Below are positions 1-44,500 of a stretch of DNA of 64,000 bases, in pieces. Below the pieces are notes generated by a model, which worked only from the letters and a program-made list of their open reading frames with translations, was not told the origin of the DNA and ran no database searches. Location: positions 5,642,001 through 5,706,000 of the forward strand of contig JBHGNT010000007.1 in the NCBI GenBank assembly GCA_043228905.1, in the 5' to 3' direction. The translations under genes were made by a program, and so were the position numbers. Origin of the DNA: Azolla caroliniana. Lineage: Eukaryota; Plantae; Polypodiophyta. How positions within the stretch are numbered: position 1 is the first letter of the stretch; each line of letters begins with the position of its first letter.

Positions 1-603
1 TTATGTAATATATATTTGATTGATATCTCGTACACATCCCCCTTTGATCTTCTCTTTCACCATTTAAATAGGTGCCCCCATGCATATGATGCATTGGAGG
101 GTACAAGTCATGCATGTGATGCATGATAAACATCTCGCTCATTTGACCTTTTATGTATGAAACAATATATGCAATAAGAATAAACATGAAAATATAATCT
201 TAAAGACAAAGGGCCTAGCCTAATGGTAGGTGTGTCAACTTTGGTGTATGAGGTTGTGGGTTCGCGTCTCAAAATGCTATTGAATACAACATACAACTTT
301 ATTTAATCCTTTATGTAATATAAAGTATATATAAAGTATGCTTTATTTTATGTATATTACTAGTATAGAGTAAATGGTAAGATTTGAGAGTCATAGGGTG
401 GGGTTATTGGTTCAAGTCCTCTCTTGTTCGTGTAATATAATATATTTATCTATATATATATATTATTTTTCTTTACATATTTATAATATTATCATATGTG
501 TTGTTAATATTATCTTTATATATAAAACATTATCAAATGTTATTTTAGTTACGTATTTATCTTATTGTAGACTTTTAATGTGAAGCTTTCGTACTTCACG
601 ACA
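1..603. mobile_element. Right-hand part of an AT-rich Gypsy-type LTR inserted into the pol gene that resumes at 604
   Basis: Ends ...ttcacgaca at 603, the same terminus as the Gypsy LTRs ending at 9925 and 11867. Pol sequence (GEKSAFGQSEILVVGHLCGPYG) starts immediately after. Layout resembles LTR 35135-35934. Confidence 0.65.
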
Positions 604-2849
604 CCGGGGAGAAATCGGCCTTCGGGCAATCAGAAATCCTGGTGGTCGGACACCTATGTGGACCATATGGCCGGAAGCCGTCTTCGGCAAAGGTAGAAGC
701 CATCTCCGCGATGAAGACCGACTGTAGCTCGGTTACGGAAGTTCAGAGGTTCTTGGGGGCGTGCGCATTCTACCACATATGGATCCCGCATTACGCCCAC
801 GTTGCGGAGCCGCTATACGGGTTGCTGAAGAAAGGGCGAAAATTCGAGTGGCGAGACGAGCACACGGAGTCGGTCCGGAAGCTGAAGGAAGCTCTTGTGG
901 CAGCACCGGCGCTCCGGAAGGCTGTCTACGGGAAGGGTACCCCGGTATACATAACAGTGGATACGAGTCCGATCGGGATCGGATGGGTCGTCAACCAAGA
1001 AGACGAGGACGGCATTCGGTTCCCGATCCGATTCGGCGCGAAGGTCCTCAGTGAGCGACAGCGAGGGTACGCCCAGGTTAAACGCGAACTCTGGGGTATC
1101 GTTTCGGCAGTGAAGGCCGACAAAGACTACCTGATCGGGACAGAAGTGAGTATCGAGGCGGATTGCCTGCCAATTCTCGGCATGGTGTCCGGATGCGCGA
1201 CACCGGACCTGGCGATGCTCAGGTGGATAGCGTACATCAAGTCCCTAGACCCGGAAATACGACACATTTCCGGAAAGGACAACGCCATGGCCGACATGCT
1301 TTCGAGGGCGAGGTTTGATGACGAGGGCGGCATGGTTTCGGAGGACGAAGAAGTCGGCGTGGACTTCTTCGAGGCAGCGTACGTGACGACCGATGGGACG
1401 AGCACTCCGGCACTTAACGGCTTCGACGAGAGCAAGTACGACGGCGAGTGGCTGCAGATCGGTGGTTTCTTAAGGACCATGACGCCGGATGCGTCATGGA
1501 CAAGGGACGAGACCAACCGGATCCGGAAGAAAGCATACCGATTCTTTCTCCGGGACGGATACTTATGGAAGCACCCGAAGAAGAGGAACGGCGTCCCGCT
1601 CCGGGTGGTGGCGATGAAGGAAGAACAGGAGGAGCTGTTGACGGCCTACCACGATAGCCCTTGGGCTGGACACCGTGGAACGTGGGCCACGTTCGAGAAG
1701 ATAAAGGGGAAGTACTGGTGGCCGGGACTGTACCGAGACGTGCATCGGTTCGTGACAACTTGCGAGAGCTGTCAGATGCACTCCGTAGTCCGACATCGGG
1801 ACGAGTTTCACGCTACGTACCCTCCGACCATCCACTTCAAATGGATGGTAGACCTGGTGACGATGCCGATGGGAGTAGAACAGATGCAGTATCTGGTCCT
1901 GGCTCGGGAAGATCTGATGAACCAGGTAAAAGGCCGAGCCCTTTAGAACAAAACGACCGCGGCCGTATGTCGGTTCCTGATTGAGGACGTGATATGCCGG
2001 TACGGGTGCGTCGGGAAGATCGTGGCTGATCGCGGGGAGTTGGACGCCGAAGAGGCTGAGGAGCTGTTCGACCGGCTAGGAGTCAAGCTCTCGCTTACCA
2101 CTGCGTACAATCCGGAGGCGAATGGGAAGGTGGAGCGCGGACACGAACCGATCGTCAAGGCGTTAGTTTGGGCATGCGGAGGTCAAGTCGGGAACTGGCC
2201 ACGGCTGCTGCCTTATGCGTTGTGGGCGGACCGAAATACGCACAGTTCGGTAACCGAATTCATGCCGGCAGAGCTCATGTTTGGGCAGAAGCCGATCATG
2301 CCGATGGAACGTACGATCTCCTCATTGGCAACCGTGGATTGGAGAGACGAGATGAGCCAGGAGGAACTGTTGGCGGTGCGCATACGACAGTTCAAGCGAA
2401 GACCGGAGGACGTGGAGCAGGCTGCGGGAAAGCTTCGGGTGGCAAGGACGAGGAACAAAGCCCGGTTCGACCGGACGCACCGGCTCCGACCAAAGAAGAT
2501 CGAGGAAGGCGACTGGGTGCTAGTCTACGACAGCAGCCTCAACAACCAGCACCGAGCGACACGGAAGTTCGCTAGAAGGTGGTTCGGGCCTTACGTGGTA
2601 CAAAGCGCCAACGACAACAGGACGTACCATCTAGCGGAACTCGACGGCACGAGAATGGCGATACCGGTAGCTGGGAAGCGGATCAAAGCGTTCAAAAAGC
2701 ATCACGACGACGAGTTGGATCCGGTTAACCTGGACAGCGATGACGAGCGATCCGAAACCGAGGAAGAACCGACGGGCGGGGAATGGAGGCTGGACGGGTT
2801 TTTCTCCGTCCCAACTCAATTTGGCGCATGCCGGTGGATGCGCGGTTAG
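604..2849 (+). pseudogene. Ty3/Gypsy pol fragment (RT C-terminus, RNase H, integrase) with a premature TAG at 1944-1946
   Basis: ORFs 642-1946 and 1989-2849 carry RNase H (VDTSP..., ELWG), integrase HHCC (HDSPWAGH...CESC) and core (AYNPEANGKVER) motifs; homologous to the intact pol at 35922-39389. Confidence 0.92.
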
Positions 2850-2860
2850 GTGGGGGCGGA

Positions 2861-3487
2861 TGTCGTGAAGAAAACTGTCCACAAGCGGAATCGGTGCACC
2901 GGAGCGTAGGAACCGGCTCTTCATACACATACGCCTTATGTTGTACATAGAAGATCCTAGGTAGGTAGATTCGGTAGGTAGGAAGTTAATGGGAAACGGC
3001 TCCTTCCTTGCCTATAAAAGGAGGGAGACGAGGAGGGGAGAGTGGATCGCGGAATCAGAGAGGACGAAGTGTTGCCGGGTTGTCGGCCGAAGGCTTCTCT
3101 CTCTTCCAAACTCCATAGCTTCTTTCTGTGCAGGTTTCGGGAGGCTCGCGCTGCTCTGAGGAATGCCCGAGTGCTTCCGGTAGCACCTCCAACCTACTCC
3201 TTTCTTTCTGTGCATTTACGAACAGGCATCGACATCTGTTCGCCGGCCTGTTCGGTTGTAACCGACTTCGTGCTTCTTGTTGTTTGTCTCTGTTAATATA
3301 TACATACATACCTTCGTGTCTCTCTGTGTTGGTTTTCCCGCTCGCTCTTCGTGTCGAAGGGCCGTGTCCCTGTGGATCTACGCTCGCACCTAGTGGGTCT
3401 CTTCCCTTCTCCTTTCTCTCTTGTTGTTCGGTACAAGACCCCCGAGGTCCCGCCTCATTCCACGCATCCGCGAGGAATACCTCGACA
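2861..3487 (+). repeat. 3' LTR of the plus-strand Gypsy
   Basis: TGTCG...CGACA termini, PPT ggtgggggcgga immediately upstream; reverse-complement homolog of LTRs 9294-9925 and 11220-11867. Confidence 0.92.
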
Positions 3488-4156
3488 CCGTATTGCTCGA
3501 CTAATAGCTTTTGTAAGTGACCTTGGATCCTCAGGGAATTGCTCCATTAGGGCTTGTTCATCCCAAGGAATATCGCTTGCGATGAGACGGAAATTGGCAG
3601 CATATGTCGAAGCTGGTTGATCACCTTGACGAAGTGTATGAATCTTGTTGATAGTTGTTCTCGCCCCATCAGTATCTTCGAAACAAGCCTTAAATTCCTT
3701 GATACATTCCTCTAAATTATTTAGTAGAGGAGAATTGGTCTCTCGCAATGGAGCAAACCACGACAATGTTATGCCAGTCAATAAGGTGCCCACTAGCCCG
3801 ACTCGTGATGCATCTGTTGGATAACGCGCGGGATGCATTTGAATCACCAACCGTACTTGATTCAAGAAACGTCGGAAATGCCCCCTCGACCCATCAAATT
3901 TAGCTAGGAGGCTAATTTTGGGCTCCTTGATAAGTCCCTGACCTTCAACCCTTTGTTGTTGTAACACTACGATTGTGGACTCTAACTGTTGCACTCGTCG
4001 CGTGAACTCCTCTTGTTGTTGTTGCTTCTCTATAGTAACCTTTTGTAGATCCCCAAGTAGACGTTGATTCTCTACTTCAAGAGATGCGAACTTGGATTTA
4101 AGGTTCTCCATTTCTGCAACAAGGGTGAGATATTCTTCTGAGTTAATGGCAGCCAT
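3488..4156 (-). pseudogene. Ty3/Gypsy gag (chromovirus/Tcn1-like Retrotrans_gag), interrupted by the Gypsy to its left
   Basis: ORF 3455-4156: coiled-coil N-terminus, then EPKISL.KFDG.R..F..F..Q and LRQG..AS.YA..F motifs. Clade assignment is by resemblance only. Confidence 0.8.
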
Positions 4157-4167
4157 GGTTTCAGGAT

Positions 4168-4181
4168 AGTTACGAAGGAGG

Positions 4182-4223
<42 letters not shown>

Positions 4224-4538
4224 TTGAATCAAACTATCAGAACCAAGGATAAAAGATAGAGTGATGGAAGAAGGATATTAGAGAACACGAGCAGAAAGGA
4301 ACGAAATACTAAGAGAAGAATGGATGTATAAGATAGAGAAAGAAAGAGAATGGATACAAGATATGTAATGAGAGCTAAAGACTGGTGTTGATTCGAATTG
4401 ATTTGAGAATACATGTATGCCCTTATTTATAGGTTCCTATAGAATAACTTAGAGATTTCTAGAATGTTCTAGAATGTTCTAGACCTAGAATGCTCTAGGA
4501 CATTCTAGAACATTCTAGAATAATCTAGAGGTTTTACA
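4168..4538 (-). repeat. Probable 5' LTR of the Tcn1-like element (left boundary uncertain)
   Basis: Minus strand starts TGTAAAACC at 4538, has TATAAATA at 4424-4431 and a CT-rich leader, and lies directly upstream of gag. Confidence 0.6.
4456..4521. promoter_or_regulatory. Heat-shock element array (alternating nGAAn/nTTCn)
   Basis: Five contiguous pentamers tTTCt aGAAt gTTCt aGAAt gTTCt (4456-4480) and four more aTTCt aGAAc aTTCt aGAAt (4502-4521), upstream of the minus-strand TATA. Confidence 0.7.
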
Positions 4539-4678
4539 ATAATCAATGTAATACAAGAAGTAGCTTTTCTTGTTTCATATAACAATAAGTTATCTTAATG
4601 GTTGAGGTTTTCAAGTATGGATTACAAGGTTCGAGGTTCAAGTCCAGGTGATGCCATAATGGTCATGTGTTCATGACA
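4539..4678. mobile_element. Terminal fragment of another Gypsy-type LTR, inserted in Copia RT
   Basis: Ends ttcatgaca (CpG-decayed ttcacgaca) where Copia RT homology begins; carries the same ataagtta..taatgg / GGTTCAAGTCC module as other Gypsy LTRs. Confidence 0.5.
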
Positions 4679-7600
4679 ATATGCACCCCCAGCATCTGTC
4701 TTGCCGGACCCAAGTCTTTCATTGAGAAGGTCCGGTTGAGAGCCTTCTTCAGCATCCGTATTTTGGCTTGGTCCTGTCCGACGATCAACATGTTGTCCAC
4801 ATACAGAAGGGGTATCAGGAAGTCGCCTCCGTCGAACTTCTTCACAAACACACAGTGATCAGCCTGTGTCTTGTGGTACCCTTGATCGGTCATGAAGGAG
4901 TCGAACTTCTGGTACCATTGTCGGGGAGCCTGCTTCAGTCTGTACAAGCTCTTCTTCAACCGGCATACCAGGTGCTCCTTCCCTTTCTCCACGAATCCTT
5001 CCGGTTGCTACATGTAGATCTCCTCTTCGAGGTCACCGTGAAGGAATGTCGTCTTCACGTCTAGCTGCTCTACCTCGAGATCCATGCTTGCCGCTATACT
5101 CAACACCGTCCGGATGGAGGTCATCTTTACTACCGGGGCAAATATCTCGTCGAAGTCCACGCCCTTCTTCTGTTGGAACCCCTTCACCACGATCCTGGCT
5201 TTGTATCTCGGGGAGTTGCTGGCATCTCCTGGTTTCAACTTGTACACCCACTTGTTTCGGAGTGCCCGCTTTCCTTTCGGCAACTCCACCAATTCGTACG
5301 TATGGTTCTCATGCAGAGAATCCATCTCATCCTGCATGGCACTTAACCATTTGCGGTTGTGGGTGTCATCCTTCGCTTCTTCGAAGCTTTCTGGCTCCCC
5401 CTCATCGGTTAGCAACACATGCTCTGCATCCGAAAATCTCCAAGGGGCCCTTCTCTCTCTGAGAGGATATCTCCGGCTTCGGTCTTCAGTAACCGGCCCC
5501 TCCATTTGCTCTTCATCCGAATCCGATTCGAGGTCTTTGCCGGTTCCGGTTTCAGCTTCCTCTACTTCTTCTTCTGCTGGTTCAGTATCCTCATCGTAAC
5601 CGATTGGTTCCTCGAGTGCTAACCGGTCTCTTGCCGGTTGGGTCTGCTCATCGTAAAATCGATCCTTACCGGTCAACTCGGAGTTCATCTTCTTCTTCTC
5701 CGACTCCCAGTCGGCGAGCGTCTTGTCCTCCATGAAGATAATATCTCGACTCCGGAATACCTTCTTGTCGACCAGGTTCCACACTCGGTAGCCGAACTCA
5801 TTGTCGCCGTAACCGAGGAATATGCATGACCGGGTCTTTGGATCTAACTTTCCTCTCCGGTCCTTAGCAACATGCACATACACGAGACACCCGAACACCT
5901 TCAAATGCCGATAGGACACTTCCTTACCGGTTCACACCTTTTGTGGCGTGTCTCCATCCAAGGGCACTGAGGGTGATTTGTTTATCACATACGTCGTTGT
6001 CGAGAGCGCCTCAACCCAAAACTTCTTGGGTAGTTTTGCATGCGCCAGCATACTCCGGACCCTCTCCATTATGGTCCGGTTCATTCTCTCGGCCAGCCCG
6101 TTTAGTTCCGGCGTCTTCGGCACGGTAAATTCGAGCCGGATTCCCTTCGAGCGACAGTACTCCTCGAACTGCCCCTGGTATTCACCTCCGTTATCTGCTC
6201 GAACCGCCTTCAACTTCCGGCCGGTTTCTCTTTCCACTCTTGCGTGGAGCTCCTTGAAGACGGATAGCACCTAATCCTTCGTCTTCAACGGTGTGGCCCA
6301 CAGCTTCCGGTTGTGGTCATCTATGAACGTCACGAAGTACTGCGATCCCGCATGTGACTTCGTGTCCACATGACACACATCAGTATGCACCAACTCTAGT
6401 GGTGCATTACGTCTCATCGGTGGCCTTGGTCGGAAGGAGGTCCGGTTTTGCTTACCTGCCAAACAATCAGTGCACTTCTCCAAGTGCACGTTCTTCACTG
6501 GAATGAGGTTGTCGTCTGCAAGCCTCTTCATCCCCTTCTCGCTCATGTGACACAGCCTCTTGTGCCACAGCTCACTTGCAGTGTCGGAAGCCACATTCAC
6601 TTCTTCCGGGCATAACCGGGCATTCATCAGGTAGATCATGTTTACCTTCCGGGCCCGAGCCACAATCAGGCTTCCTTTGTTGAACTTCATAACACCGTTC
6701 CGGATGCTACCCATGTAGCCTTCATCATCTAGCCGACCGGCTGTTTAGATTCAGACGAACCTCTGGACCGTGTCAGACATCCTTCAGCAGCATGCTTGCA
6801 TCCGGTTGGTGTTGTCAGCCACACGTCTCCTATGCCGACAATTAGGCATGTACCTTCATTCCCCATCCGAACACAGTCGTGGTCACCGACTGCGTAGGAT
6901 GAGAAGCATTTCCGGTCCGGGGTAAGGTGGAACGACGCTCCGGAGTCGACCACCCAGGTCATCTCGTCACCAACAAGGTTTATCTCACTCTCCTCGGTGA
7001 TGAGCATCAACTCTTCTTCACTTCCCACGATTGCCGTCGTTCCCTTCTGGTCCGGCCCCCTCCGGTTTGGTGTCCGCTTCGAATCGGTACCGTCGGTTTC
7101 CTTGTCTTTCCGGAAATGCCGACAGTTCTTCTGGAAGTGTCCCGACTTGCCACAATAGAAGCAAGTAGGCCTCCCCCTTGACTTTGACTGTGTCCCTGAC
7201 TTTTCCCGATTCTGGGGGCTACGGTTCCTTTGTCTTCCGCGTTCCGATTCGGTAAGAAGCGCTTTGGAGTTGGAGCTCGTATCCTTATCTTTCCGACTCG
7301 CCTCCTCATCTAGCAAGCTCGACTTCACTCTTGCAACCAATGTCTCCCAGCTATCTGGGAGGGAACCGAGTAGGAGTAGTGCTAGTACCTCATCGGCGAG
7401 AGGTACTTCCAATGATGTTGCCTGGTGAATCAGCCCCTGGAAGGCATTCATGTGCTCCACCATGCTGGAGCCATCTTGGTACCGGAGTCTTACTAGCTTC
7501 CGAAATACCGAAACCTGATTGACAACATTTTTGTTCTAAAACATAATGCCGATCTTCTCCCAGAGCTCATGAGCCTTGCTCTCTTCATTGAAGTTGTTGT

Positions 7601-8113
7601 ATAGGCTCATGTCGATGAAGCGCCGTATGTAAGCCGTTGTCTTCATGTGCATCACCTCCCATATCGTGGCGTCGATTTGGTCCGGTCTCTTGTCCTCGAA
7701 CTGAACCGGCAACCAAAGATCTTTAACCACGAGCATGTCCCTCATCTTCGACTTCCACACTGAATAGTTGGAGCCGGTGAGCTTGAACATGTCGCCCAAT
7801 GATTCGTCCATTTTCTGTGTTGTTTCGCTCTGATACCACTTTGTCAAGAACTACACGCTCCGATGAACACCGCTCGCCGCAACCGAGCTTAGAATCAAAC
7901 ACAGAAAACGGGGAAAAAAAAACACGACACAAAGGAGAGAAGAGTACATAGGATGTTTAACGTGGAAAACCCTAAGAGGGAAAAACCACGGGAGTCCACA
8001 GACTCCAAACTATCACTATATCACAATGATTACAACAGTGAGCTCACGGAGGCAACGACCTCGCGCTCTCGATCTTCGCCACAGGTGGCAGTTACAACAG
8101 AGGCAACGACCTC

Positions 8114-8155
<42 letters not shown>

Positions 8156-8694
8156 TACACTGTTACGCGCTCTCAAGTCTTGCACCAACAAAAATGACAA
8201 CAACTCCTATGAAAGAGTTTGCCCTAAGTCATATTTATACTAATATGACTTTTAGGCTATTTACAAATATAGCCCTGATGGACTCTCAGGAACATATTTA
8301 CTAATATGTCCCTTCATTCGGTGAGCGCTCCTCACGGGGCCTGCATCATCCGGCGCTTGTTGGGCACACGTCGTCCGGTTCTCACCGGGTCTTCCGTTTC
8401 CGGGTGCTCTTCATCTGGTTCTCACCGGGTCTTCACGGGGCCTGCATCATCCGGCGCTTGTTGGGCACACGTCGTCCGGTTCTCACCGGGTCTTCCGTTT
8501 TCGGGTGCTCTTCATCCGGTTCTCACCGGGTCTTCACCGTCCGGCTCTTGCCGGGTACTCGTCATCCGGTTCTCCGTAGCCGGGTACTCCTCATCCGGTT
8601 CTCACCGGGTCTTCTGTAGTCGGGTACTCCCCATCCGGTTTCTCATCAGTACTATTCTTCTCACATCCCATCCGGAGGGACCTGTTTCCTAACA
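4679..8694 (-). mobile_element. Ty1/Copia element (Tnt1/Tork-like), 5' LTR 7842-8694, degraded gag-pol 7811 to 4679, interrupted in RT
   Basis: TG..CA LTR, Met PBS TGGTATCAGAGC at 7827-7838, CCHC knuckle, protease DSGAS, integrase and RT (YVDNML) in Copia order, several stops/frameshifts. Confidence 0.93.
8330..8645. repeat. U3 subrepeats (catccggttctcaccgggtcttc) including an approximately 100-bp tandem duplication
   Basis: Direct inspection; the same units occur in LTRs 27310-27475 and 48455-48710. Confidence 0.85.
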
Positions 8695-9293
8695 AATTGT
8701 GGAGCAAGGGATGCAAGTTCGATTCAATCCTGGTGGTTGCTTCATTGAAAAAGAGGGCCGACTCATCGCACGCGGACGAAGAGAGGGCCGAATGTTCATT
8801 CTCGACTCACACGAGATGAAATTGGCCATGTTCGCAAAGGGCATGAAAGCTGACTCCGACATAGAGTTATGGCACAAGCGGATTGGCCATATAAATCTCC
8901 AAAAGCTCAAAGCAATGAAATCGAAAGGAGTCGTCATCGGACTCCCGACATTCAAAGAGAAGGAGATTGAAGGTGTATACGAAGCGTGCCAATTCGGCAA
9001 GCAACACCGACACCCATTCCCGAAAGAGCGGAACGTGAGCAAAGGTCTACTCGCCGTAGTCCATTTAGACATATGGGGACTGGCGCAGACGACTACATTC
9101 GGCGGGTGCCGATATTACATGCTCTTCATCGATGACTTCTCTAGGCACACTTGGATCTACCCGATGCGGCAAAAGAGCGAAGTATTCAGACACTTCCAAA
9201 CATTCAAGAATGAAGTCGAGAAAGCCACGGGCCGACATGTACGTTGTCTTCAATCGGATGGCGGCAAGGAGTACTTCTCGGACGATTTCACGG

Positions 9294-11867
9294 TGTCGAG
9301 GTATTCCTCGCGGATGCGTGGAATGAGGCGGGGCCTCGGGGGTCTTGTACCGAAGAGCAAGAGACAAAGGAGAAGGGAAGGGACCCACTACGTGTGGGCG
9401 TAGATTCACAGGGGCATGGCCCTTCGACACAAAGACGCGAGTGGGACACCAACGCAGAGAGACACGAATGTATGTATATATATATATATATTAACAAGGA
9501 CAAACAACAAGAAGCACGAAGTCGGTTACAACCGAACAGGCCGGCGAACAGATGCCGATGCCTGTTCGTAAATGCTCAGAAAGAAAGGAGTAGGTTGGAG
9601 GTGCTGCCGGAAGCACTCGGGCATTCCTCAGAGCAGCGCGAGCCTCCCGAAAACATGCACAGAAAGAAGCTACGGAGTATGGAAGAGAGAGAAGCCTTCG
9701 GCCGACAACCCGACAGCACTTTGTCCTCTCTAACCGCGATCCGTTCCTCTTCCCTGTCTCCCTCCTTTTTATAGGCAAGAAAGGAGCCGTTTCCCATTAA
9801 CTTCCTACCTACCGAATCTACCTACCTAGGATCTTTTATGTACAACATAAGGCGTATGTGTATGAAGAGCCGGTTCCTACGCTCCGGTGCACTGATTCCG
9901 CTTGTGGACGGTTTTCTTCACGACATCCGCCCCCACCTAACAGCGCATCCACCGGCATGCTCCACTCGGTTATTTCCCGGACCCGTCTCTCAGCGAGGTC
10001 TGCTTCATCTTTCCTCAGCCGTGCACCGACAAGGCCTTCCAGCATTGCCGACCAGAATCCGTCTTTGCTCTCCTTTCGGGCCTCGCTGCCCCCGACCCGA
10101 ATGCTGGCCGACGCCGAGTAGTGGATGGCCTCCACGTGTCGGGCCGCTGCCTCTTCCATCAGTCTCTTCATACCTCCTCGCTCGTCGTTCCGGTTTAGGG
10201 TCCTTTTGGTATCGTCGGCATGCACCCGGCCTTCCCATAGGTACACCACCCGATTCCTCAACGCCTCTGCGAAATCGCTGCAGTCCTTCCGAATGTGACC
10301 GACCTCGTCGCACCACATGCACCTGTTCCCTGCTGCCGGCCGTCGGTCACGAGCCGGTTCGCCGCCTTCCCTTCGAGTCTGGGCGATCTGGAGATCCTTT
10401 ATCGCCCGCGTCAACTCCTCCAGCGCTACTCCTCCGGACGAGTCATTGACCACGCCGGTCGGAGCCGAACAGGTTTCGAGCCACTCCCGGGTCTCTGCCC
10501 TTCGCCCTTGCGGTGCCGGTTCAAGCCTCCTCGTTGTGACAGAGCCCGCTTCGGCCGCCCCGTTGTCAGCCCATTCTCGCCGTTTGTCGAAACGGCCACA
10601 TACTCTCTTAACCGCAGCCCAGTCGGTCATCAGCCCGTCTTCGGTTTCTAGCAAGGAGCCGACTTGATCCCGGTCCCGCTCGTCCACCGACTTGACGAAC
10701 AGTAGGACCCGGCTCGTATCCAGAACGGTTCGGTCAAGCGCCGAAAGGCGCGCAAAGCGTTCCTCAAACTACCGGAGGAGTGCCGACGCGTTTCTTCCCT
10801 TGCCGGGGAACTCCACCCATTCCATGAAGTCCCGTTTCGAAAGCCGGAGCGCGTCATCCAGCCCGTATTTTTCTAGGAGTCGGCCTTCGAACTCCTCCCA
10901 GGTACGGCTCTCCGCCCGTACCTCGAGCACCTCCGCATGGATGCTCGGCATCGCCACTCGAGGGAACCCGGCAAGACGCCTCTCTTCCGGAATGTCCCGC
11001 ATCAGCATTTCTGCCCCGTAGGACGCCAAATACTTCGTGGCATCCTTTCCGCTGAACCGGCCGATCGTGCCGACGACCACCTCAATGGCTCTGTCGAGGG
11101 CGCCGGTGCCCTCGCGTGCGCTCAATATCCGATCCACGGCCGAAGCCATGGCCTCCGCAAGATCCGACCCCTTCATCTTCTACTCTTCTGCCGCCTCCTT
11201 CACGTCGGGTTCACCAAGATGTCGAGGTATTCCTCGCGGATGCGTGGAATGAGGCGGGGCCTCGGGGGTCTTGTACCGAAGAGCAAGAGACAAAGGAGAA
11301 GGGAAGGGACCCACTACGTGTGGGCGTAGATTCACAGGGGCACGGCCCTTCGACACAAAGACGCGAGTGGGACACCAACGCAGAGAGACACGAATGTATG
11401 TATATATATATATATTAACAAGGACAAACAACAAGAAGCACGAAGTCGGTTACAACCGAACATGCCGGCGAACAGATGCCGATGCCTGTTCGTAAACGCT
11501 CAGAAAGAAAGGAGTAGGTTGGAGGTGTTGCCGGAAGCACTCGGGCATTCCTCAGAGCAGCGCGAGCCTCCCGAAAACCTGCACAGAAAGAAGCTACGGA
11601 GTATGGAAGAGAGAGAAGCCTTCGGCCGACAACCCGACAGCACTTCGTCCTCTCTAACCGCGATCCGTTCCTCTTCCCTGTCTCCCTCCTTTTTATAGGC
11701 AAGAAAGGAGTCGTTTCCCATTAACTTCCTACCTACCGAATCTACCTACCTAGGATCTTCTATGTACCTAATTCTCTCTTTGTACAACATAAGACGTACG
11801 TGCATGAAGAGCCGGTTCCTACGCTCCGGTGCACCGATTCCGCTTGTGGACGGTTTTCTTCACGACA
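9294..11867 (-). mobile_element. Internally deleted non-autonomous Gypsy: LTRs 9294-9925 and 11220-11867, partial gag only
   Basis: Paired LTRs, flanks ACGG (9290-9293) and ACGA (11868-11871), PBS 11199-11216, PPT beside the left LTR, gag with CMWC..GH....C knuckle and an internal stop. Confidence 0.93.
11199..11216 (-). promoter_or_regulatory. Primer binding site complementary to the tRNA-Trp 3' end
   Basis: TGGTGAACCCGACGTGAA is complementary to plant tRNA-Trp ...TTCACGTCGGGTTCA-CCA (recalled sequence); identical at 41580-41597. Confidence 0.8.
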
Positions 11868-20469: not shown

Positions 20470-20500
<31 letters not shown>

Positions 20501-31834: not shown

Positions 31835-31877
<43 letters not shown>

Positions 31878-34800: not shown

Positions 34801-35688
34801 AAGGACCAAGTGTTGTGCGTCTTCAAAGAACTCCACGCGAGAGTGGAAAGGGAATCCGGCAAGAAGCTGAAAGCGATACGAGCGGATAACGGAGGGGAAT
34901 ACCGGGGGCAGTTCCGGGAGTACTGTCGCTCGAAGGGAATCCGACTCGAGTTTACTGTGCCGAAGACGCCGGAACTGAACGGGCTGGCCGAGAGGATGAA
35001 CCGGACCATAATGGAGAGGGTCCGGAGTATGCTGGCGCATGCGAAATTACCCAAGGGGTTTTGGGCCGAGGCAATGTCGACGGCGACATACGTGATTAAC
35101 AGATCACCCTCAGTACCTTTGGACGGAGACACGCTGTCGTGCCTTTCGGCTCCGGATCGTTGCGTGAGTCGGGTGGGAACCACAGAGGTCTTGGACTAGG
35201 AGAAAGAAGTTCGTGAGATAGAGATTAATTATGAGTAAATAGCAAAGAGAAAGATAAGAAACTCGTGAATCACACGAGTATACTATATTAATTGGTACTT
35301 AGGGTGTTAAGAGAGAAGTAGATGTATAAATCGTGAATCCCACGAATAATTTTTGTATTGATTAATACGTAATCCAAATAATCAACAACCATATACATAT
35401 TTCTCTCCTCCTTATATAAGGAAGGAAGAGCTAAGCATGGCTTCATGCTTTTTTTTTTTACAAAAAGTGTTCATGTCCACTAAATGTGCATGTGATGCTT
35501 TTTTTATTTCCTAAGTATAGGGCTCATGCACGCTAGATGTGCATGACTTATTTTTAGTGTCTCGTGTTTTTCTTTTCTTTTCTTTTTTCATATATTAAAA
35601 AAAATACACGATTTACCTTTTAATAAAGGTATGCATAAATAAAGGTCTTATACCTATTAAATCTATATTTAAAACACTTAAGATAAGT

Positions 35689-35778
35689 TAATGTAATGGT
35701 AAGGTTGGGGTTTGTGAACGTGGAGGTGCAGAGTTCGAATCACGCCCTGCGCAATAGTGAGTATTTCCTTTCTTTTTA
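35689..35778 (+). promoter_or_regulatory. tRNA-like Pol III A-box/B-box module with oligo-T, inside the Gypsy LTR (copy from 42156)
   Basis: TAATGTAATGG at 35689, AGTTCGAATCA at 35732, TTTTT shortly downstream. Confidence 0.5.
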
Positions 35779-35921
35779 CATTTATGTCTCTTTATCCGTT
35801 TTCCTCCTTGCCGGTATGCCGTTTTCCTCCTTGCCGGTATGCCGTTTTTCCTCCGGTTCTCACCGAGCACTCCATTCTCTATCCGGAGGGACAAAAATAT
35901 AATTTCCACATAGTGTGCAAC

Positions 35922-38900
35922 CTACACTACGACACTCGCCCCCTCCAAACCCGCACATCCTCCGGTATGTGCCGAAGTTCTTGATTCTTCGTATCCGTCT
36001 TCATCCGAAGCTTCCTCCGATTCTCCCCTTATGTCGACTATGAGTTGTAATCCACTTTCTTCGCTTCCCGCATCATTGTGGTCTTCGTCCGATTGCTCCT
36101 CGTTGTCGGCCTCGACTTGGATCACATAAGGTTTGTCGTCGGTCCGCTTCTTGAAAATCTTCACCCGCTTCCCGGCTATAGGCACTCGTAGTATTGTTCC
36201 ATCCAACTCGGACAGTCGGTACGTCCCGTTGTCGAAGACCTTCCGAACCTCGTACGGCCCGAACCACCTTTTCGCGAATTTCCGCATCGTTGTATGTTGA
36301 TGGTCCAAGCTACTATCATATACGATCACCCAATCTCCTTCTTCAATCCTCCTCGGTCGTAGTCGGTGCTTTGTGTCGAAACGGCTTTTGTTCCGGAATC
36401 GTGCTTCTTGTTGTCGGCGTGACGCTTCCGCTACATCTTTCGGTCTTCCCTCCAGTTGTCGTATCCGGACCGCTAGTAGTTCTTCCCGGCTCATCTCTTC
36501 CTTCCACGGTAGTATTGTCCATGTCGCGATTGCGGTTTCCGTTGGCATTACCGGTGCTTGTCCGGTCATGAGTTCTGCCGGCATGTAACCGGTCACGGAG
36601 CTATGCGTCGTCCGATCCGCCCATAGTGCATACGGAAGCATTTGTGGCCAATCCTTCACCCTTCCGTCGCATGCCTTCGCAAGTGCTTTCACGATCGGAC
36701 TATGTCCTCGTTCGATCTTCCCGTTGGCCTCCGGATTGTAGGCCGTTGTCAACGTTAACCGAACTCCATGTTTGGCGAAGAATCCCCTAGCTTTGTCCGA
36801 GTCGAGTTCTCCCCGGTCCGCAATCACTTGTCCTACGCAGCCGTACCTACAAAACACTTCTTCCAAAAGAAATTGGCACACCGCGGCACACGTTTTCCTC
36901 CGAAGCGCTCGACCTTCAACTTGGTTTGTGAGATCTTCTCGAGCTAACACCAAGTATTTCTTTTGTCCAATCCCGGTCGGCATAGCTACAATGTCGACCA
37001 TCCACTTGAAGTTGATTGTCGGTGAGAATGTCGGATGCAGCTCATCTCGGTGTCGGACCCCGGAGTAGACTTGACATTTCTCGCAGCTTTCTGTGAACTC
37101 CGCGACATCTTTATACATGTTCTTCCACCAATATCTTTGCTTGATTTTCACAAAAGTTGCCCATGTTCCTCGATGTCCAGCCCAATCGGATTCGTGGAAC
37201 TCGGACATTATCCGATTTCGTTGCTCTTTCGTCCCGACTACTCGAAGTGGTATCCCATCCGGTCTTTTCGGCGTCCTCCATATTAAACCGTTTTCCAAGA
37301 AGAACTTTTGGACTTGCCTCTTCTTCCTTCGGATCTCGGCTCTCCTTTCTTTATCATTGGTTGAATCCTCGACCTCTTGTAGTATCTTCCCGATCATCAA
37401 GGTTTCCCCCTCGTATTCTTCTTCCCGGAATTCTCGGATCACGTTCACTCGGCATATGTGTTCTGACGTGAAGTAGTCTTTGGAAACTTCTTCATTATCT
37501 GATTCGGTAATGTCGTCTTCAAACCGCGCCCTCGATAACATGTCTGCTACCGCGTTGTCCTTCCCCGAGATGTGTCGAACCTCCGGATTAAGTGACTTGA
37601 CATATGCAATCCACCTTAGCATAGCCACATCCGGTATCGTACAACACCGCATCATCCCGAGTATCGGAAGACAATCCGTCTCGATCACCACTTCAGCTCC
37701 GATCAAATAATCCCGATCCGATTTTATCGCCGACACGACTCCCCACAATTCTCTTTTGACTTGTGCATATCCGCGTTGCCTTTCGTTGAGGACCTTTGCT
37801 CCAAATCGGATCGGATACCGCGAACCATCCGAGTCGGCTTGATTGATGACCCACCCGATACCGGTTGGACTTGTATCAACCGTTACTATGATTGGCCGCT
37901 TGTAGCTTGGCTTCTTAAGTGATTCCGCCCTCCATAGTGTCTTCTTGAGCTTCCTCATGGCTTTAGTGTGTTCCGGTTTCCACTCGAATTTCTTACCTTT
38001 CCGCAACAAGTGATAGAGCGGGTCCGCTATATGTGCATAGTGCGGAATCCATATGTGATAGAATGCACACGCACCCAGAAACCTTCGGACTTCCGATGTT
38101 GACTCACATACTTCCTTCATAGCTTGAATCGCATCGACCTTTGTTGGTGACGGTCTTCGGCCGTAGGGTCCACATAGATGTCCGACCACCAATATTTCTT
38201 CTTGCCCGAATGCCGATTTCTCCCCGGAAAGTGTTAGGTGCACATCTTCTAGCTTTCGCAACACTTTCTCGCAATCATGAATATGGTCGACCACGAACTT
38301 TCGGCATCCCCGATCATCCATAGTCTCATCTTTTTCTTCCACCGCGCATCCTTTCATCGGAATGTCATCTAGAAACGGCATCGTTATCTCCGGGATGCAA
38401 TCTCGAAGCACCTTGTTCATCGCGTTCATCATATGAGCAACCGAGTTTGTCGCTCCTTGTGGTAGTGTGCACATTCGAACTAGTCCTATCGGTGTCCGCA
38501 TGGTAGTGATGTCTCGGCTCTCCACGGCTAGTTGGAATTGGTCATACCCCGAGTATAGGTCCCCGATGGAGTATATCGCACGTCCGGCAAAAGCTTCCGC
38601 GAATTCGTCCACTATCGGACCGACTCCCGAGTTCCGGATCGTGACCTTGTTCACCGGTTGCAAGTCTTGGATGAATCGGAGTGACCCATTCTTCTTCGGA
38701 ACCGTAAACCATCGATTTGAGTACGGAGCACTTGATGGCTCTAGAATCCCCATCGCCACCTTCTCCTTGAGCAAGTCGATGACTTTCGGAATATGCGCCC
38801 GTGGCACCGGAATCGGCTTCAGGTTCCACGGTACATGATCAATCGTGAAAATCACCATCGGCTCCACTATCTTTGGATCAATGCATCCGATCTCCCTCGA

Positions 38901-39533
38901 TGTGAACGCGAATGCTTTGCCGTGTTGCTCCAACATCTCTCGAAACCGTTTTTCTTCTTCTTGTAAGAGGAACCCACCTCCACCGATCCGAAGTTTCTTC
39001 CGGGTCTCATCTGTGAAGGCATGTCCGATATCCACGGTCTTCCGAAGTGTCGGGTCTCCCGAGACTTCTTTCCTCTTTTGTTCGCTATCGGCGGGTAGTG
39101 GTCCCGCGGCCGGTTTCACCTTCTTCTCCACGGTCTTGTATTTCGTACTTACCATTGCTTCTTCTTTGCGGAGCGCATCCGGCCCCATTTTCGCAACGAT
39201 CTCGTACATCTCGACCGATTCCACCGGGACTACCCGGTTCCCTTGGCTTTTATCTTCCGCAAGCTCTTCAAGCCGTTGTAGTGTATTCCCATAGAACACT
39301 TCCTCGATCACTCCCACGATTTCTTCGTCTTCTTTTATTATTGATGCCGACCGTAACTTATCCTCCACTTGTCGGTAATGTTTCTTCATTCCTCCGGTTA
39401 CGGTCGTGTACGTAGATGCCCCATCCGGGCCGATTCGTACTTGTTTTGCTCCGAGAGTTTTCTTCCTGTGTGGGGTATCAGGGCTTCTCGGACTATCACT
39501 TCCCCACTCCGCAACAGTCCGCTTTAAAAATCC
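35922..39533 (-). CDS. Gypsy Pol (RT-RNase H-integrase), probably entered by -1 frameshift at 39527-39533
   Basis: 1155-aa ORF whose frame stays open upstream to the slippery site; LPQGATNS, FLDD, RNase H, HHCC, DDE and GPY motifs. Confidence 0.92.
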   Translation of the reverse strand, partial: GFLKRTVAEWGSDSPRSPDTPHRKKTLGAKQVRIGPDGASTYTTVTGGMKKHYRQVEDKLRSASIIKEDEEIVGVIEEVFYGNTLQRLEELAEDKSQGNRVVPVESVEMYEIVAKMGPDALRKEEAMVSTKYKTVEKKVKPAAGPLPADSEQKRKEVSGDPTLRKTVDIGHAFTDETRKKLRIGGGGFLLQEEEKRFREMLEQHGKAFAFTSREIGCIDPKIVEPMVIFTIDHVPWNLKPIPVPRAHIPKVIDLLKEKVAMGILEPSSAPYSNRWFTVPKKNGSLRFIQDLQPVNKVTIRNSGVGPIVDEFAEAFAGRAIYSIGDLYSGYDQFQLAVESRDITTMRTPIGLVRMCTLPQGATNSVAHMMNAMNKVLRDCIPEITMPFLDDIPMKGCAVEEKDETMDDRGCRKFVVDHIHDCEKVLRKLEDVHLTLSGEKSAFGQEEILVVGHLCGPYGRRPSPTKVDAIQAMKEVCESTSEVRRFLGACAFYHIWIPHYAHIADPLYHLLRKGKKFEWKPEHTKAMRKLKKTLWRAESLKKPSYKRPIIVTVDTSPTGIGWVINQADSDGSRYPIRFGAKVLNERQRGYAQVKRELWGVVSAIKSDRDYLIGAEVVIETDCLPILGMMRCCTIPDVAMLRWIAYVKSLNPEVRHISGKDNAVADMLSRARFEDDITESDNEEVSKDYFTSEHICRVNVIREFREEEYEGETLMIGKILQEVEDSTNDKERRAEIRRKKRQVQKFFLENGLIWRTPKRPDGIPLRVVGTKEQRNRIMSEFHESDWAGHRGTWATFVKIKQRYWWKNMYKDVAEFTESCEKCQVYSGVRHRDELHPTFSPTINFKWMVDIVAMPTGIGQKKYLVLAREDLTNQVEGRALRRKTCAAVCQFLLEEVFCRYGCVGQVIADRGELDSDKARGFFAKHGVRLTLTTAYNPEANGKIERGHSPIVKALAKACDGRVKDWPQMLPYALWADRTTHSSVTGYMPAELMTGQAPVMPTETAIATWTILPWKEEMSREELLAVRIRQLEGRPKDVAEASRRQQEARFRNKSRFDTKHRLRPRRIEEGDWVIVYDSSLDHQHTTMRKFAKRWFGPYEVRKVFDNGTYRLSELDGTILRVPIAGKRVKIFKKRTDDKPYVIQVEADNEEQSDEDHNDAGSEESGLQLIVDIRGESEEASDEDGYEESRTSAHTGGCAGLEGASVVV

Positions 39534-41563
39534 ATTCTCACTTGGGACAAGAGTTCCCTCTTGTTCCTTTCGTGATTTGCCGGCACCGTTAGGAATTGGA
39601 CGGATTTCCCTCCGTTTTGGCTCCGAATTCGCGCAAAAGCCGCACCACTATCGAGCACCTTCGTCTCCATCCGTGAAGCCGTGATAAAGGGTTGGCCGAG
39701 GATGACAGAATGTGAAACCTCATCCTGCACAAAGAAATTTTGGTCAATTTCGACATCCCCGATCTTTACCGTCACATCCGGACAAGCCGCAAATAGGTCT
39801 TCTGTCGTTTTCGTGGCTGCCCGAATCTTCCATCCATGGTTGGTGTTTATAGGCCACTTCCCCTTTCGGTAGAACTCCTTGGACATCAAGTTGATCTCCG
39901 ATCCGTGATCAATCAATGCTAGCACGGGTTCTTTGATGTTGCCGATTCGGACCGGAGTCTCCGTAGTCGCACGTGCCCAGTGTGGCCTTGTATAGTGGGA
40001 GTTCGGAATTTCGCCTTCCACTTCGGTGTCGTTCATTGAAACGGTATTTGCATTCACCCTTGGAGCATTTTCCTCCGTACTTTGTCTCTTCCTTTTCACG
40101 AGATCCACGAGAAGATCGTGAAACTCCTTCTTCACTATTCCGAGTAGTTCCCGCAGTGAAAAATCTACCCGGCTATCCAAGATTCTTTCCTCGAACACTC
40201 TTTTCAAGTCGGTTTGTTGTTCTATGTCCGAGGCGAGCTTGAATGCCGGAGTCGCCTTTTCTTTTACCTTACCTCCGGAGTTCCAGCTTTCCGGTATCTT
40301 CGATGGTCCGGCCGCATCCTCCGTGCGCCGTCGTTTCTCGTCCACATACACCTCATGTAATTGACAAAGGGCGTATATGCTATTCTTGTCGACAGGGCAC
40401 TCCCATCCCGTAGCTTCCCGGACGCCTTCCGCGGTGTTTCGGATATCGTTGGAGTCGGTTTTCTCGGTGTTTCCTAGCACCTCCGGCCAGAAAGACGCCT
40501 TCGCTCCCGATGACTCCCCGACACATATTCCCGCGGTTGTCGCATAGTTGCTTCTTGCCGCTAACTCCTCCTCGAGCACCTTCTTCATGCCGCCTTTCCG
40601 GAAGTTCGGTCGGAGTGGCTTCCGAGAGTCCATCGAATGAATCCGGTTTCCCTCGTAGTAGATGAGATCCCGTCGTAGCGCCTCCTTATGGTCGTCGCAA
40701 TCCCTCCGATCGTGTTCGGCGCTATCGCACCATATGCACCGTCGATCCGTATATTTGGAGCTTGTGGGGCGGTCATCCGACTTCTTCACCATCGCGATCT
40801 TTAGATTCTCCATCTCCTTCAGCAGCCGCTCCACCGTAGACGCGTCGACTCCCTTCTCGGCCGTAATCTCCCGAGCCCTCGGTTGATGGTCTTCCAGTCC
40901 CGTTCTCGGTTTCGGAATCGGTTCCGAAACCCTCTTTTCTTCGTTGGCAAGCCATTGCCCCCTCTTCGTGTACCGCGCGACGATATCCCGCACGCTTTCC
41001 CATGTTTCGGTGAGGCCGCTTTCGGTGGTCGCGTCCTCAAGAAGCACTCCGAGATCTTTCCGGTCCCGGACGTCCACAGCTCGCAAAAACATGATGACTT
41101 TGTCCGGCGCAAGTATAGTTTGATCTCTCGCGGACAACCTCCCGAACCGACTTTCGAATGTCGAAAACACTTCGAGGACCTTCAGCCCCTTACCTGACGT
41201 TTCCACCCAATCCTCGAATCCCCTCCGCGTTGCCTTGGAGGAGTCCTCGATGGCAAACGTGGTCTTTAACGCCTCTTCGAATGCTTCCCACGTCGGATTT
41301 TGTTGTTGCAACCCGTGGATACTCCCTTGAAGCCCGTCGGTCGCCACCCGGTTAAAGGATGTCACTTGCAGTCCTTCCGAAGCCCGGCACCGGAGCATCT
41401 CCGCCTTGTAGTCCTGCAAATATCGCGACACATCCTTACCATTAAATTGCCCGTTGCGTTGCACGAGCCGCTCTACTGATGCCGAAATCTCCGACATCGT
41501 GCGTTGTTCTTGAAGCATCCGTTCGAACATCGCCATCATATTGTTAGCTTGTTGAGCCTCCAT
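39524..41563 (-). CDS. Gypsy Gag-protease
   Basis: Open frame from MEAQQ; CIWC...H....C knuckle; protease-like ALIDHGSEIN...ILGQPF. Confidence 0.9.
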   Translation of the reverse strand: MEAQQANNMMAMFERMLQEQRTMSEISASVERLVQRNGQFNGKDVSRYLQDYKAEMLRCRASEGLQVTSFNRVATDGLQGSIHGLQQQNPTWEAFEEALKTTFAIEDSSKATRRGFEDWVETSGKGLKVLEVFSTFESRFGRLSARDQTILAPDKVIMFLRAVDVRDRKDLGVLLEDATTESGLTETWESVRDIVARYTKRGQWLANEEKRVSEPIPKPRTGLEDHQPRAREITAEKGVDASTVERLLKEMENLKIAMVKKSDDRPTSSKYTDRRCIWCDSAEHDRRDCDDHKEALRRDLIYYEGNRIHSMDSRKPLRPNFRKGGMKKVLEEELAARSNYATTAGICVGESSGAKASFWPEVLGNTEKTDSNDIRNTAEGVREATGWECPVDKNSIYALCQLHEVYVDEKRRRTEDAAGPSKIPESWNSGGKVKEKATPAFKLASDIEQQTDLKRVFEERILDSRVDFSLRELLGIVKKEFHDLLVDLVKRKRQSTEENAPRVNANTVSMNDTEVEGEIPNSHYTRPHWARATTETPVRIGNIKEPVLALIDHGSEINLMSKEFYRKGKWPINTNHGWKIRAATKTTEDLFAACPDVTVKIGDVEIDQNFFVQDEVSHSVILGQPFITASRMETKVLDSGAAFARIRSQNGGKSVQFLTVPANHERNKRELLSQVRMDF

Positions 41564-44500
41564 CTCCTTGCCACCCGCTTTCACGTCGGGTTCACCAACT
41601 GTGTCGTGCCTTTCGGCTCCGGATCGTTGCGTGAGTCGGGTGGGAACCACAGAGGTCTTGGACTAGGAGAAAGAAGTTCGTGAGATAGAGATTAATTATG
41701 AGTAAATAGCAAAGAGAAAGATAAGAAACTCGTGAATCACACGAGTATACTATATTAATTGGTACTTAGGGTGTTAAGAGAGAAGTAGATGTATAAATCG
41801 TGAATCCCACGAATAATTTTTGTATTGATTAATACGTAATCCAAATAATCAACAACCATATACATATTTCTCTCCTCCTTATATAAGGAAGGAAGAGCTA
41901 AGCATGGCTTCATGCTTTTTTTTTTTACAAAAAGTGTTCATGTCCACTAAATGTGCATGTGATGCTTTTTTTATTTCCTAAGTATAGGGCTCATGCACGC
42001 TAGATGTGCATGACTTATTTTTAGTGTCTCGTGTTTTTCTTTTCTTTTCTTTTTTCATATATTAAAAAAAATACACGATTTACCTTTTAATAAAGGTATG
42101 CATAAATAAAGGTCTTATACCTATTAAATCTATATTTAAAACACTTAAGATAAGTTAATGTAATGGTAAGGTTGGGGTTTGTCAACGTGGAGGTGCAGAG
42201 TTCGAATCATGCCCTGCGCAGTAGTGAGTATTTCCTTTCTTTTTACATTTATGTCTCTTTATCCGTTTTCCTCCTTGCCGGTATGCCGTTTTCCTCCTTG
42301 CCGGTATGCCGTTTTCCTCCTTGCCGGTATGCCGTTTTTCCTCCGGTTCTCACCGAGCACTCCATTCTCTATCCGGAGGGACAAAAATATAATTTCCACA
42401 TAGTGTGCAACCTACACTACGACAACGCCGCAGAAAGTGTGGACCGGTAAGGAAGTGTCCTACCGGCATCTGAAGGTGTTCGGGTGTCTCGCATACGTGC
42501 ATGTGGCAAAGGACCGGAGAGGAAAGCTAGATCCAAAGACCCGGCCATGCATATTCCTCGGTTACGGCGACGACGAGTTCGGCTACCGAGTATGGGACCC
42601 GGTCGACAAGAAGATATTCAGGAGTCGAGACATCATCTTCATGGAGGACAAGACACTCGCCGACTGGGAGTCGGAGAAGAAGATGAAGAGCTCCAAGTCG
42701 ACCGGTGAGGATCAACTCTACGAGGAGCAGTCCCGACCGGCAAGGGACCGGTTAGCACTGGAGGATCCGGCCGAAGACGGTGAAGAAACAGAACCGGCCG
42801 AAGAAGATGAAAATGATACCGGAACCGGCCCTGACCCCGAAATGGATTCGGATGAAGAAGAATCGGAAGAACCGGTTACCGAAGCTCCGGAACGGAGATA
42901 TCCTCTAAGAGAGAGAAGGGCCCCCCGGAGATTTCCGGAACCAGAGCACGTGCTGCTAACCGACGAGGGGGAGCCGGAGAGCTTTGAAGAAGCAAAACAT
43001 GACACCCAGAGCCGCAGGTGGTTGAGTGCCATGCAGGACGAGATGGATTCCTTGCATGAGAACCACACATATGAACTTGTGGAGTTGCCGAAAGGAAAGC
43101 GGGCACTTCGAAACAAGTAGGTGTTCAAGCTGAAACCGGGAGATGCCGGAAAACCCCCGAGATACAAAGCCAGGATCGTGGTGAAGGGGTTTCAGCAAAA
43201 GAAGGGCGTCGACTTCGACGAGATATTTGCCCCGGTAGTGAAGATGACCTCCATCCGGACGGTGCTGAGCATAGCGGCAAGCATGGACCTCGAGGTAGAA
43301 CAGATGGACGTGAAGACGGCATTCCTTCACGGTGACCTCGATGAAGAGATCTACATGCAGCAACCGGAAGGATTCGAGAAGAAAGGGAAGGAGCACCTGG
43401 TATGCCGGTTGAAGAAGAGCCTTTACGGACTGAAGCAGGCTCCCCGGCAATGGTACCGGAAGTTCGACTCCTTCATGACCGACGAAGAGTACCTCAAAAC
43501 GCAGTCCGACCACTGCGTGTTTGTGAAGAAGTTCGAAGGAGGAGACTTTCTAATACTCCTCCTGTACGTGGACGACATGTTGATCGTCGGACGGGACCAG
43601 GTCAAGATACGGATGCTGAAGAAGGCTCTTCACCGAACCTTCTCAATGAAGGACCTGGGTCCGGCGAGGCAAATACTAGGGATGCACATCATCCGGGACC
43701 GGAAGAAGAAGCAGTTGTGGCTGTCACAGGAGAAGTACGTGACGAAGGTGCTTCACCGGTTCAACATGTCGGAAGCAAGACCGGTCGGATCGACCCTCCC
43801 GGCAAACTGCAAGCTGTCCAGCAAGCAAAGTCCCAAGACAAAGGCTGAGAAGGAGGACATGATGAAAGTACCATATGCCTCTGCCGTCGGGAGCTTGATG
43901 TACGCCATGGTGTGTACGAGACCGGACATAGGATATGCAGTCGGAGTGGTGAGCCGGTACATGAGCAATCCCGGCAAAGAGCATTGGAACGCGGCCAAGT
44001 GGATACTCCGATACCTGAAAGGCACGGCAAACGTGTGCCTCCGATTTGGCTCCGGTAAGCCCGAACTCGACGGCTTCACCGATTCGGATATGTCGGCTGA
44101 TGCAGATACCAGCCGGTCCACATCAGGGTATGTGATGACGTATGCAGGGGGAGCCGTTTCGTGGCAGTCGAGGCTGCAGAAGACGGTTGCGTTGTCAACC
44201 ACGGAGGCGGAGTACATGGCAGTTGTTGAAGCCGGCAAGGAAATAATATGGATGAAGGACTTCATCAGAGAGCTCGGTATCCGGCAGGAGGAGTACCGAC
44301 TCTACTGCGACAGTCAGAGTGCAATCCACCTTGCGAAGAACGCGGCCTATCACTCCCGGACGAAGCACATCCAGCGAAGATATCACTGGATCCGGGAAAG
44401 GATAGAAGACAAGGAGTTCGTGCTGACAAAGATCCACACGGACGAGAACGGGTCGGATATGCTGACCAAGGTCCTCACACCCGACAAGCTGGAAGCATGC

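Follow-up and report, generated by a model that had tools for sequence, protein, structure and literature searches.

The closest described systems to the one considered here are two groups of miniature retrotransposons with terminal repeats (TRIMs), Helenus and Cassandra. According to the consulted sections of the paper that treats both (Kojima 2024, PMC10886601), the Helenus elements (TRIMp3) are non-coding and 311-1263 bp long, they conserve tRNA-derived A- and B-boxes in their long terminal repeats (LTRs) with the tRNA function mostly lost, the module is taken as the promoter of the element, and there is one plant case, from Selaginella. The same sections describe in Cassandra an internal promoter of RNA polymerase III (Pol III) within a plant LTR, which is 5S-derived (type 1) and drives the whole short element, and mention that 'not a few' Repbase LTRs resemble a part of a tRNA, in an analysis confined to TRIMs shorter than 1000 bp. 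Here we analysed 64,000 nucleotides (nt) of Azolla caroliniana (contig JBHGNT010000007.1, positions 5,642,001 to 5,706,000), called the window from now on, which consists of nested LTR retrotransposons with a region resembling long interspersed nuclear elements (LINEs), and then of host DNA. Several autonomous Gypsy families represented there keep in their LTRs the promoter module of a tRNA gene, that is, an A-box, the word AGGT and a B-box at the spacing of intronless tRNA genes.

The modules are real and conserved, and they differ from both TRIM systems. Unlike Helenus, the carriers are protein-coding Gypsy elements with a TATA-like box and gag and pol frames (7290 bp in the intact one), and their modules are mostly antisense, number one to three per LTR and can be found in either orientation. 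Unlike Cassandra, the promoter is of type 2 (tRNA) and cannot drive a 7-kb RNA. What is new is the presence of tRNA-type modules in the LTRs of autonomous Gypsy elements; Pol III promoters in the LTRs of short elements were already known, and the novelty is lowered because PMC10886601 mentions tRNA-like pieces in other Repbase LTRs. In the literature that we searched, which left out Repbase and REXdb entries, most subscription papers and the supplements of Kojima, we met no account of modules of this kind from the LTRs of autonomous Gypsy elements in bryophytes, and the consulted part of a paper on moss transposable elements (PMC7466625) mentions neither tRNA nor short interspersed nuclear elements (SINEs) nor Phygy. 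The latter is a non-chromovirus Gypsy clade described from a moss, with 4-bp NCGN duplications, mostly tRNA-Trp priming and lengths of 7.7-10.0 kb (Neumann 2019, PMC6317226). We call the intact carrier of the window Phygy-like by features described for this clade, namely an NCGN duplication, a coding region spanning the internal part and no chromodomain match, at a length of 7.3 kb; the consulted part of PMC6317226 mentions no tRNA-like LTR module for Phygy.

Modules of the window

An earlier note on this DNA had listed five A-/B-box pairs, and a scan with the consensus of both boxes, allowing mismatches, recovered all of them, at 216/259, 366/409, 4591/4635, 35689/35732 and 42156/42199. The modules and the LTRs that carry them are listed below, where U3 is the unique 3' region of the LTR and names beginning with L denote related loci from metagenomes:

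42156..42209, + strand: module in the 5' LTR of the intact element; A-box at 42156, AGGT at 42191-42194, B-box at 42199, T5 at 42240-42244; U3, antisense
35689..35742, + strand: copy of the preceding module in the intact element's 3' LTR; B-box at 35732, T5 at 35773-35777
216..269, + strand: module 1 of the second Phygy-like family; B-box off consensus at position 58 (A to C)
366..419, + strand: module 2 of the second Phygy-like family; perfect B-box, T5 46 nt downstream
4591..4645, + strand: antisense module in U3 of an LTR whose element has a Ty3-type gag; 160 bp between A-box and TATA box; L047 holds a homologous fragment
35135..42424, - strand: intact Phygy-like Gypsy element of 7290 bp, inside a Copia element, with the 4-bp target duplication ACGC (NCGN type)
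41602..42424, - strand: the intact element's 5' LTR, with a TATA-like box at 41878-41886
35135..35934, - strand: the intact element's 3' LTR, with a TATA-like box at 35411-35419
1..603, - strand: U3 end of a second Phygy-like LTR that the window edge truncates, related to L019/L020 and L024; followed by the target CCGG
4160..4678, - strand: 5' LTR of a Gypsy element with Ty3-type gag, not Phygy; left end approximate; TATA-like box at 4432

The several distinct Gypsy LTRs of which the earlier note spoke came down to three families (two Phygy-like, one with Ty3-type gag) with four independent modules, as 35689 and 42156 lie in the two LTRs of one element. Its box spacing of 43-44 nt holds for every module except 366, which has 42 nt in an 11-nt A-box register. 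The LTR end of the CGACA type that it gave to each module had to be abandoned, because the LTR with 4591 terminates in ...CATGACA at 4678; furthermore, CGACA is present at both ends of Phygy-type LTRs and is no marker of orientation. Every window module is in U3 and antisense, upstream of the TATA-like box wherever one could be placed. This agrees with the note for the intact element, and so does the oligo-T downstream, a T5 30 nt past the B-box; in the other modules the first T4 run behind the B-box comes after 76 nt (216), 46 nt (366) and 115 nt (4591, beyond the LTR). That no cloverleaf is kept was also right: ARAGORN called no tRNA in the window nor in any of the loci scanned (0 in 60/60), and there was no Rfam tRNA match.

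Regarding the significance of these pairs, at spacings of 40-48 nt the window gave 7 matches, where 20 block shuffles averaged 1.5 and never exceeded 5, and the two extra matches were poor ones in host DNA (52379, + strand, and 50970, - strand). With the spacing widened to 30-70 nt, its 12 matches were no more than expected by chance (shuffle mean 7.7, maximum 13), so that the window on its own is only suggestive, and the matter was settled by the related loci.

Distribution and conservation in related LTRs

As related loci we took the best 80 of 236 relatives from metagenomes (L001-L080), fetched by integrase alignment, whose LTR limits were placed from the polypurine tract and the primer-binding site, and by hand for six loci. 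A first scan began with B-box cores alone, leaving the spacing unused, and the distance to an upstream TGG was then measured: among de-duplicated cores, TGG stood 33-34 nt upstream in 16/43 of those in LTRs versus 2/68 of those in internal DNA. A module profile made of two blocks and trained on those 16 from LTRs as seeds, which match by construction, gave 43 matches (38 in the loci and 5 in the window) versus 0 in each of 5 shuffles. Of the 38 locus matches, 36 were in mapped or hand-set LTR stretches and 2 in LTR-like fragments (L047, L080); none was in coding sequence, though around 261 kb of internal DNA were scanned. Of the 43 LTR families whose U3 covers 400 nt or more, 18 bear a module. 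The modules are family-level parts of LTRs, as the earlier note had supposed. De-duplication left 30 modules, whose base frequencies were weighted over 19 clusters and which merge into 13 groups. On a quick integrase tree, used for description, modules are patchy and one module type is found in distant clades. No relative was found in the viral contigs searched.

The boxes and their spacing are conserved above the flanks in alignments of homologous LTRs picked by integrase kinship, the comparison for which the note had called. In group A (the window, L002, L003 and L004) the invariant columns were 10/13 in the boxes, 11/32 in the spacer and 55/139 in the flanks, the boxes falling to 8/13 with all 7 group-A LTRs. 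For module 216 with L019, L020 and L024 they were 11/13, 6/32 and 30/134, respectively. AT bias is no explanation of this, because in the latter set the invariant G/C columns were 9/9 in the boxes versus 4/36. Gapped columns were 0-1 of 54 in the modules and 16-47 of 140 in the flanks. We consider it very probable that the boxes are under selection.

The most conserved bases, in tRNA numbering, were T8 (0.84), A14 (0.79), G18 (0.97) and G19 (1.00) on the A-box side, A38 (0.89), G45 (0.89), G46 (0.99) and T47 (0.95) before the B-box, and G53 (0.99), T55 (1.00), C56 (0.93), A58 (0.98) and C61 (0.95) in the B-box, with most other module positions at 0.3-0.6. The box positions are partly built into the module search, and the A-box bases in particular owe part of their conservation to how the modules were found. 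G46 and A38 were no part of the search; G46 is G in 16/16 seeds and 13/13 merged groups, and A38 is kept in 12/13 merged groups. T33 (0.75) was dropped as a conserved position, as its 10/13 merged groups are the same as for the non-key T28. The B-box core GTTCRAnnC is kept in 23/30 modules, the distance from G19 to G52 is 32-34, and B-boxes stand alone in a few places. When contigs of four public runs, in which rare variants are lost, were mapped on 42120-42245, they varied above 4% at 8 module positions, 7/32 non-key and 1/22 key, which are small numbers. The sole variable key position was A10, mostly changed to G, and no indel was seen; a CpG in the spacer was variable and the neighbouring CpG of the B-box was not among the listed variants.

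Pairing in the tRNA stems was at the permutation level (acceptor 0.39/0.39, D 0.46/0.51, anticodon 0.41/0.43, outer T 0.39/0.40), and together with the absence of ARAGORN or Rfam calls this speaks against a functional tRNA gene. The heads of tRNA-derived SINEs also hold A- and B-boxes, and the modules resemble them in having both boxes with decayed stems. Nevertheless, they differ in body, tail, target duplication and free-standing copies, and a SINE insertion was rejected. Repeats like target-site duplications surrounded 4/30 modules versus 2-5 in shifted controls (old duplications could have decayed), A4 followed downstream in 3/30 only, no body was common to the clusters (downstream matches were LTR ends or neighbouring modules), and no free-standing copy was present among the 43 profile matches. 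The sporadic SINE insertions flanked by duplications that the earlier note held to be fatal to its proposal were not borne out.

Residual identity at non-key positions between module groups was 0.292 versus 0.258 shuffled, which suggests common descent of the modules. They have presumably spread by duplication and U3 exchange, because the sister families L032 and L033 differ by replacement of the whole U3, the U3 at 1-603 is a mosaic, L020 has a duplicated B-box block and the same module type recurs in distant clades. In the mosaic, the left part is like L024 and the right part like L019, which points to U3 exchange between families. No clean pair of empty and filled sites was found, the LTRs of L016/L017/L024 and of L006-L012/L066/L008 being largely non-homologous. 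As a separate observation, made over the U3s of the window and of L001-L080, those that bear a module have a higher AT content and 4.6 CATGCA words per kb versus 1.8 in module-less ones, so there may be two U3 designs in this clade.

Possible role of the modules

From sequence, the modules are like type 2 Pol III promoters in having both boxes near consensus at a workable spacing, and the bases kept are what one expects a DNA-binding factor to recognise, whichever way the module faces and without RNA pairing. We give a probability of about 0.5 to the reading that they are docking sites for TFIIIC and TFIIIB that hold open the LTR's own promoter for RNA polymerase II (Pol II); we infer the binding of these factors, the sign of its effect and any RNA. 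A tRNA gene or SINE head would have been captured once or a few times and spread among families by duplication or U3 exchange. TFIIIC would bind the B-box together with the G-rich word upstream, the kept A-box would place TFIIIB between the module and the TATA box, and the complex would exclude nucleosomes or stop spreading silencing, so that copies with a module would be transcribed more reliably; a Pol III transcript of 80-100 nt, if any, would be a by-product. According to the consulted part of bioRxiv 2024.08.28.610035, a base that lies upstream of the B-box is in contact with tauB in yeast, a change of G45 alters binding five-fold, and the yeast A-box is dispensable for TFIIIC binding and serves TFIIIB placement. 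Furthermore, in yeast and human, tRNA genes and extra TFIIIC (ETC) sites act as barriers to heterochromatin in a way that depends on TFIIIC (consulted part of PMC12409998). The modules resemble them in keeping the TFIIIC recognition bases without need for an RNA, and a barrier role was proposed there. However, ETC sites are B-boxes without TFIIIB or Pol III, whereas the modules, known here from their sequence, keep an A-box at tRNA spacing and lie in a mobile element. They would be more than ETC-type sites because the A-box is kept, though TFIIIC binding does not need it.

Regarding orientation, 22 of the 30 modules are antisense and 8 are sense. The distance from A-box to TATA box was 152-166 bp in 8 of the 14 antisense modules with a clear TATA-like box (L004, L011, L019, L020, L028, L039, L051 and the Ty3-gag LTR, which is not Phygy), a pattern seen post hoc, with the TATA box chosen by eye among pattern matches and some cases of common ancestry. 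Elsewhere it was 191-198 bp in L032 and 243-271 bp in five members of the window's own clade. Sense modules stand 73-128 bp behind the TATA box, and outward-facing modules or B-boxes bracket it in L011, L019/L020, L024 and L032. A wider proposal, which we hold only tentatively, is that autonomous Gypsy elements of two lineages use tRNA-gene promoters as portable insulators, a counter-silencing device that borrows TFIIIC and TFIIIB and is set head-to-head around one nucleosome upstream of the Pol II promoter or on both sides of it. The insulator idea of the earlier note may be correct, as it fits the evidence.

Several points weigh against docking sites that keep the promoter open. The other 25 of the 43 LTR families have no module, including whole clades and high-coverage contigs, and therefore the module is dispensable. 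The B-box core is broken in 7/30 modules, window 216 among them. A lineage with C56T (L003, L058, L071, L080) includes one contig at coverage 104, and compared with the window copy it has identities of 0.71-0.79 in the boxes and 0.71-0.77 in the flanks, that is, no excess conservation; in yeast C56 is critical, C56G having a 370-fold effect (consulted part of PMC11811891). Nine 'extra' conserved positions were spotted after looking at the data, the TATA distance has the limits just given, shared U3 ancestry inflates the counts, and in the intact element the distance is 271 bp. Neither A38 nor the strict spacing between the boxes is explained by TFIIIC binding, the latter because TFIIIC tolerates a variable spacing (same part of PMC11811891). 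Only 18/30 modules have a T4 within 50 nt, and there is no upstream enrichment of TATA or CAA at the modules. Besides, the barrier role of TFIIIC sites is borrowed by analogy from yeast and animals, not plants.

Among the other explanations, the modules could be passive relics, SINE heads or tRNA genes caught in U3 and carried without function. Their patchiness on the integrase tree, the replacement of the whole U3 between L032 and L033, the residual non-key identity and the persistence of broken B-boxes would all agree with this. Nevertheless, we find it unlikely, as the boxes change less than spacer and flanks in homologous LTRs, neutral decay should keep stems as well as consensus bases while the stems are at chance, and the signs of a SINE counted above are missing. 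The same factors could also work as a brake or a wall, damping the Pol II promoter of the LTR or blocking read-through or enhancers between the LTR and its neighbours in nests. The conservation pattern predicted would be the same, tRNA genes block enhancer-promoter contacts (consulted part of PMC12409998) and the sense modules behind the TATA box stand in the path of Pol II; however, the majority of modules lie upstream of the TATA box and point in the direction away from it, and module-bearing families reach high depth in public runs. This too has a low probability in our opinion.

If the product matters instead, a Pol III RNA of 80-100 nt would act on the element or on host silencing. The kept A-box, the conserved A38 and the T5 30 nt past the B-box of the intact element speak for it, as does a T-skew higher downstream than upstream in both orientations (0.25 versus -0.05 and 0.21 versus -0.29). 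Yet the T-skew is equally high 100 nt further on, the spacer is nearly free to change, the stems are unpaired, and the predicted transcript folds with a mean z of -0.58 (-0.3 to 1.2 for window modules). The small antisense Pol III RNA that the earlier note proposed is weakened because relatives have sense modules, no fold is conserved and a near T-run exists in just 18/30, and we regard a role of the product as rather improbable. A landing pad for integrases that target Pol III start sites would suit a window that is a nest of elements. Actually, none of the five window modules has an insertion immediately upstream, the LTR alignments are continuous there, and Phygy-like insertions here follow NCGN targets within coding DNA, which makes this explanation very improbable. 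Finally, the genomic RNA of the element could be transcribed by Pol III from the module, by analogy with TRIMp3 elements (PMC10886601, consulted sections); with all window modules antisense, TATA-like boxes kept and, in the 7.3-kb element, 11 internal T4+ runs on the sense strand (3 of them T5+), this can hardly be the case.

Should the modules be docking sites for TFIIIC and TFIIIB, active plant retrotransposons would carry a shield of host factors against silencing without encoding a protein, and with each new copy the genome would gain a site for Pol III factors. Through evolution, the base profile (G45/G46/T47, A38) would then show which bases plant TFIIIC recognises when freed of tRNA folding, and the barrier role, if true, would make the modules a set of naturally occurring TFIIIC barriers of plants. 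Closely related families that do or do not have a module, together with the lineages with a broken B-box, are ready natural controls.

Other features of the nest

The remaining features of the Gypsy elements are the following:

41580..41597, - strand: primer-binding site of the intact element, common to related loci
39524..41662, - strand: gag frame of the intact element; weak DUF4100 match, under the curated cut-off
35922..39647, - strand: pol frame of the intact element, with reverse transcriptase, RNase H and integrase; no chromodomain match
3458..4228: Ty3-type gag of the same element as the LTR 4160-4678
604..3487, + strand: Phygy-like pol and 3' LTR (2862-3487), control family without module
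9294..11867, - strand: short element (2.6 kb) that belongs to this module-less LTR family and has a single gag-like frame without pol

The two LTRs of the intact element differ by 3 mismatches in 800 nt, and its primer-binding site may be that of tRNA-Trp. This agrees with the Phygy row of the table in PMC6317226. The pol stop codon is within the 3' LTR (35922-35946), so that the polypurine tract is translated. Target duplications of the Phygy type (4-bp NCGN) were ACGC/ACGC and ACGG/ACGA, with single sides CCGG and CCGT. Among the homologues of the Gypsy integrase, the named ones are from Riccia and Ceratopteris; taken alone, this and the Phygy-like features would suggest a bryophyte host. 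In three runs, 32-39 contigs per run carry Copia sequence up to 42425 and lack the Gypsy insert, which other copies of the host Copia would account for. The fourth Gypsy family of the window has no module in the LTRs scanned (2862-3487 and 11220-11867); the element at 9294-11867, which has LTRs in common with the Phygy-like element at 604-3487, is likely non-autonomous.

The family with Ty3-type gag may be Tcn1-like, which is a guess. Its U3 contains, between module and TATA box, an array of words like heat-shock elements (GAAnnTTC/TTCnnGAA, 4457-4520), with 7 of the window's 54 matches within 110 nt, and this would, we assume, make the LTR heat-inducible. Both ends of LTRs of this type (window 4678-4683; L047 11976-11981) lie at different Copia sites but next to an identical pentamer (ATATG, read on the plus strand of the window), a possible target preference (n=2).

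Outside the Gypsy elements, broken LINE-like frames (endonuclease, reverse transcriptase, zinc finger) at 45147-50741 (+ strand) adjoin the 3' LTR of Copia. A match to the U6 small nuclear RNA at 57900-58001 (- strand, 100.8 bits) has a worn 5' stem and may be a pseudogene.

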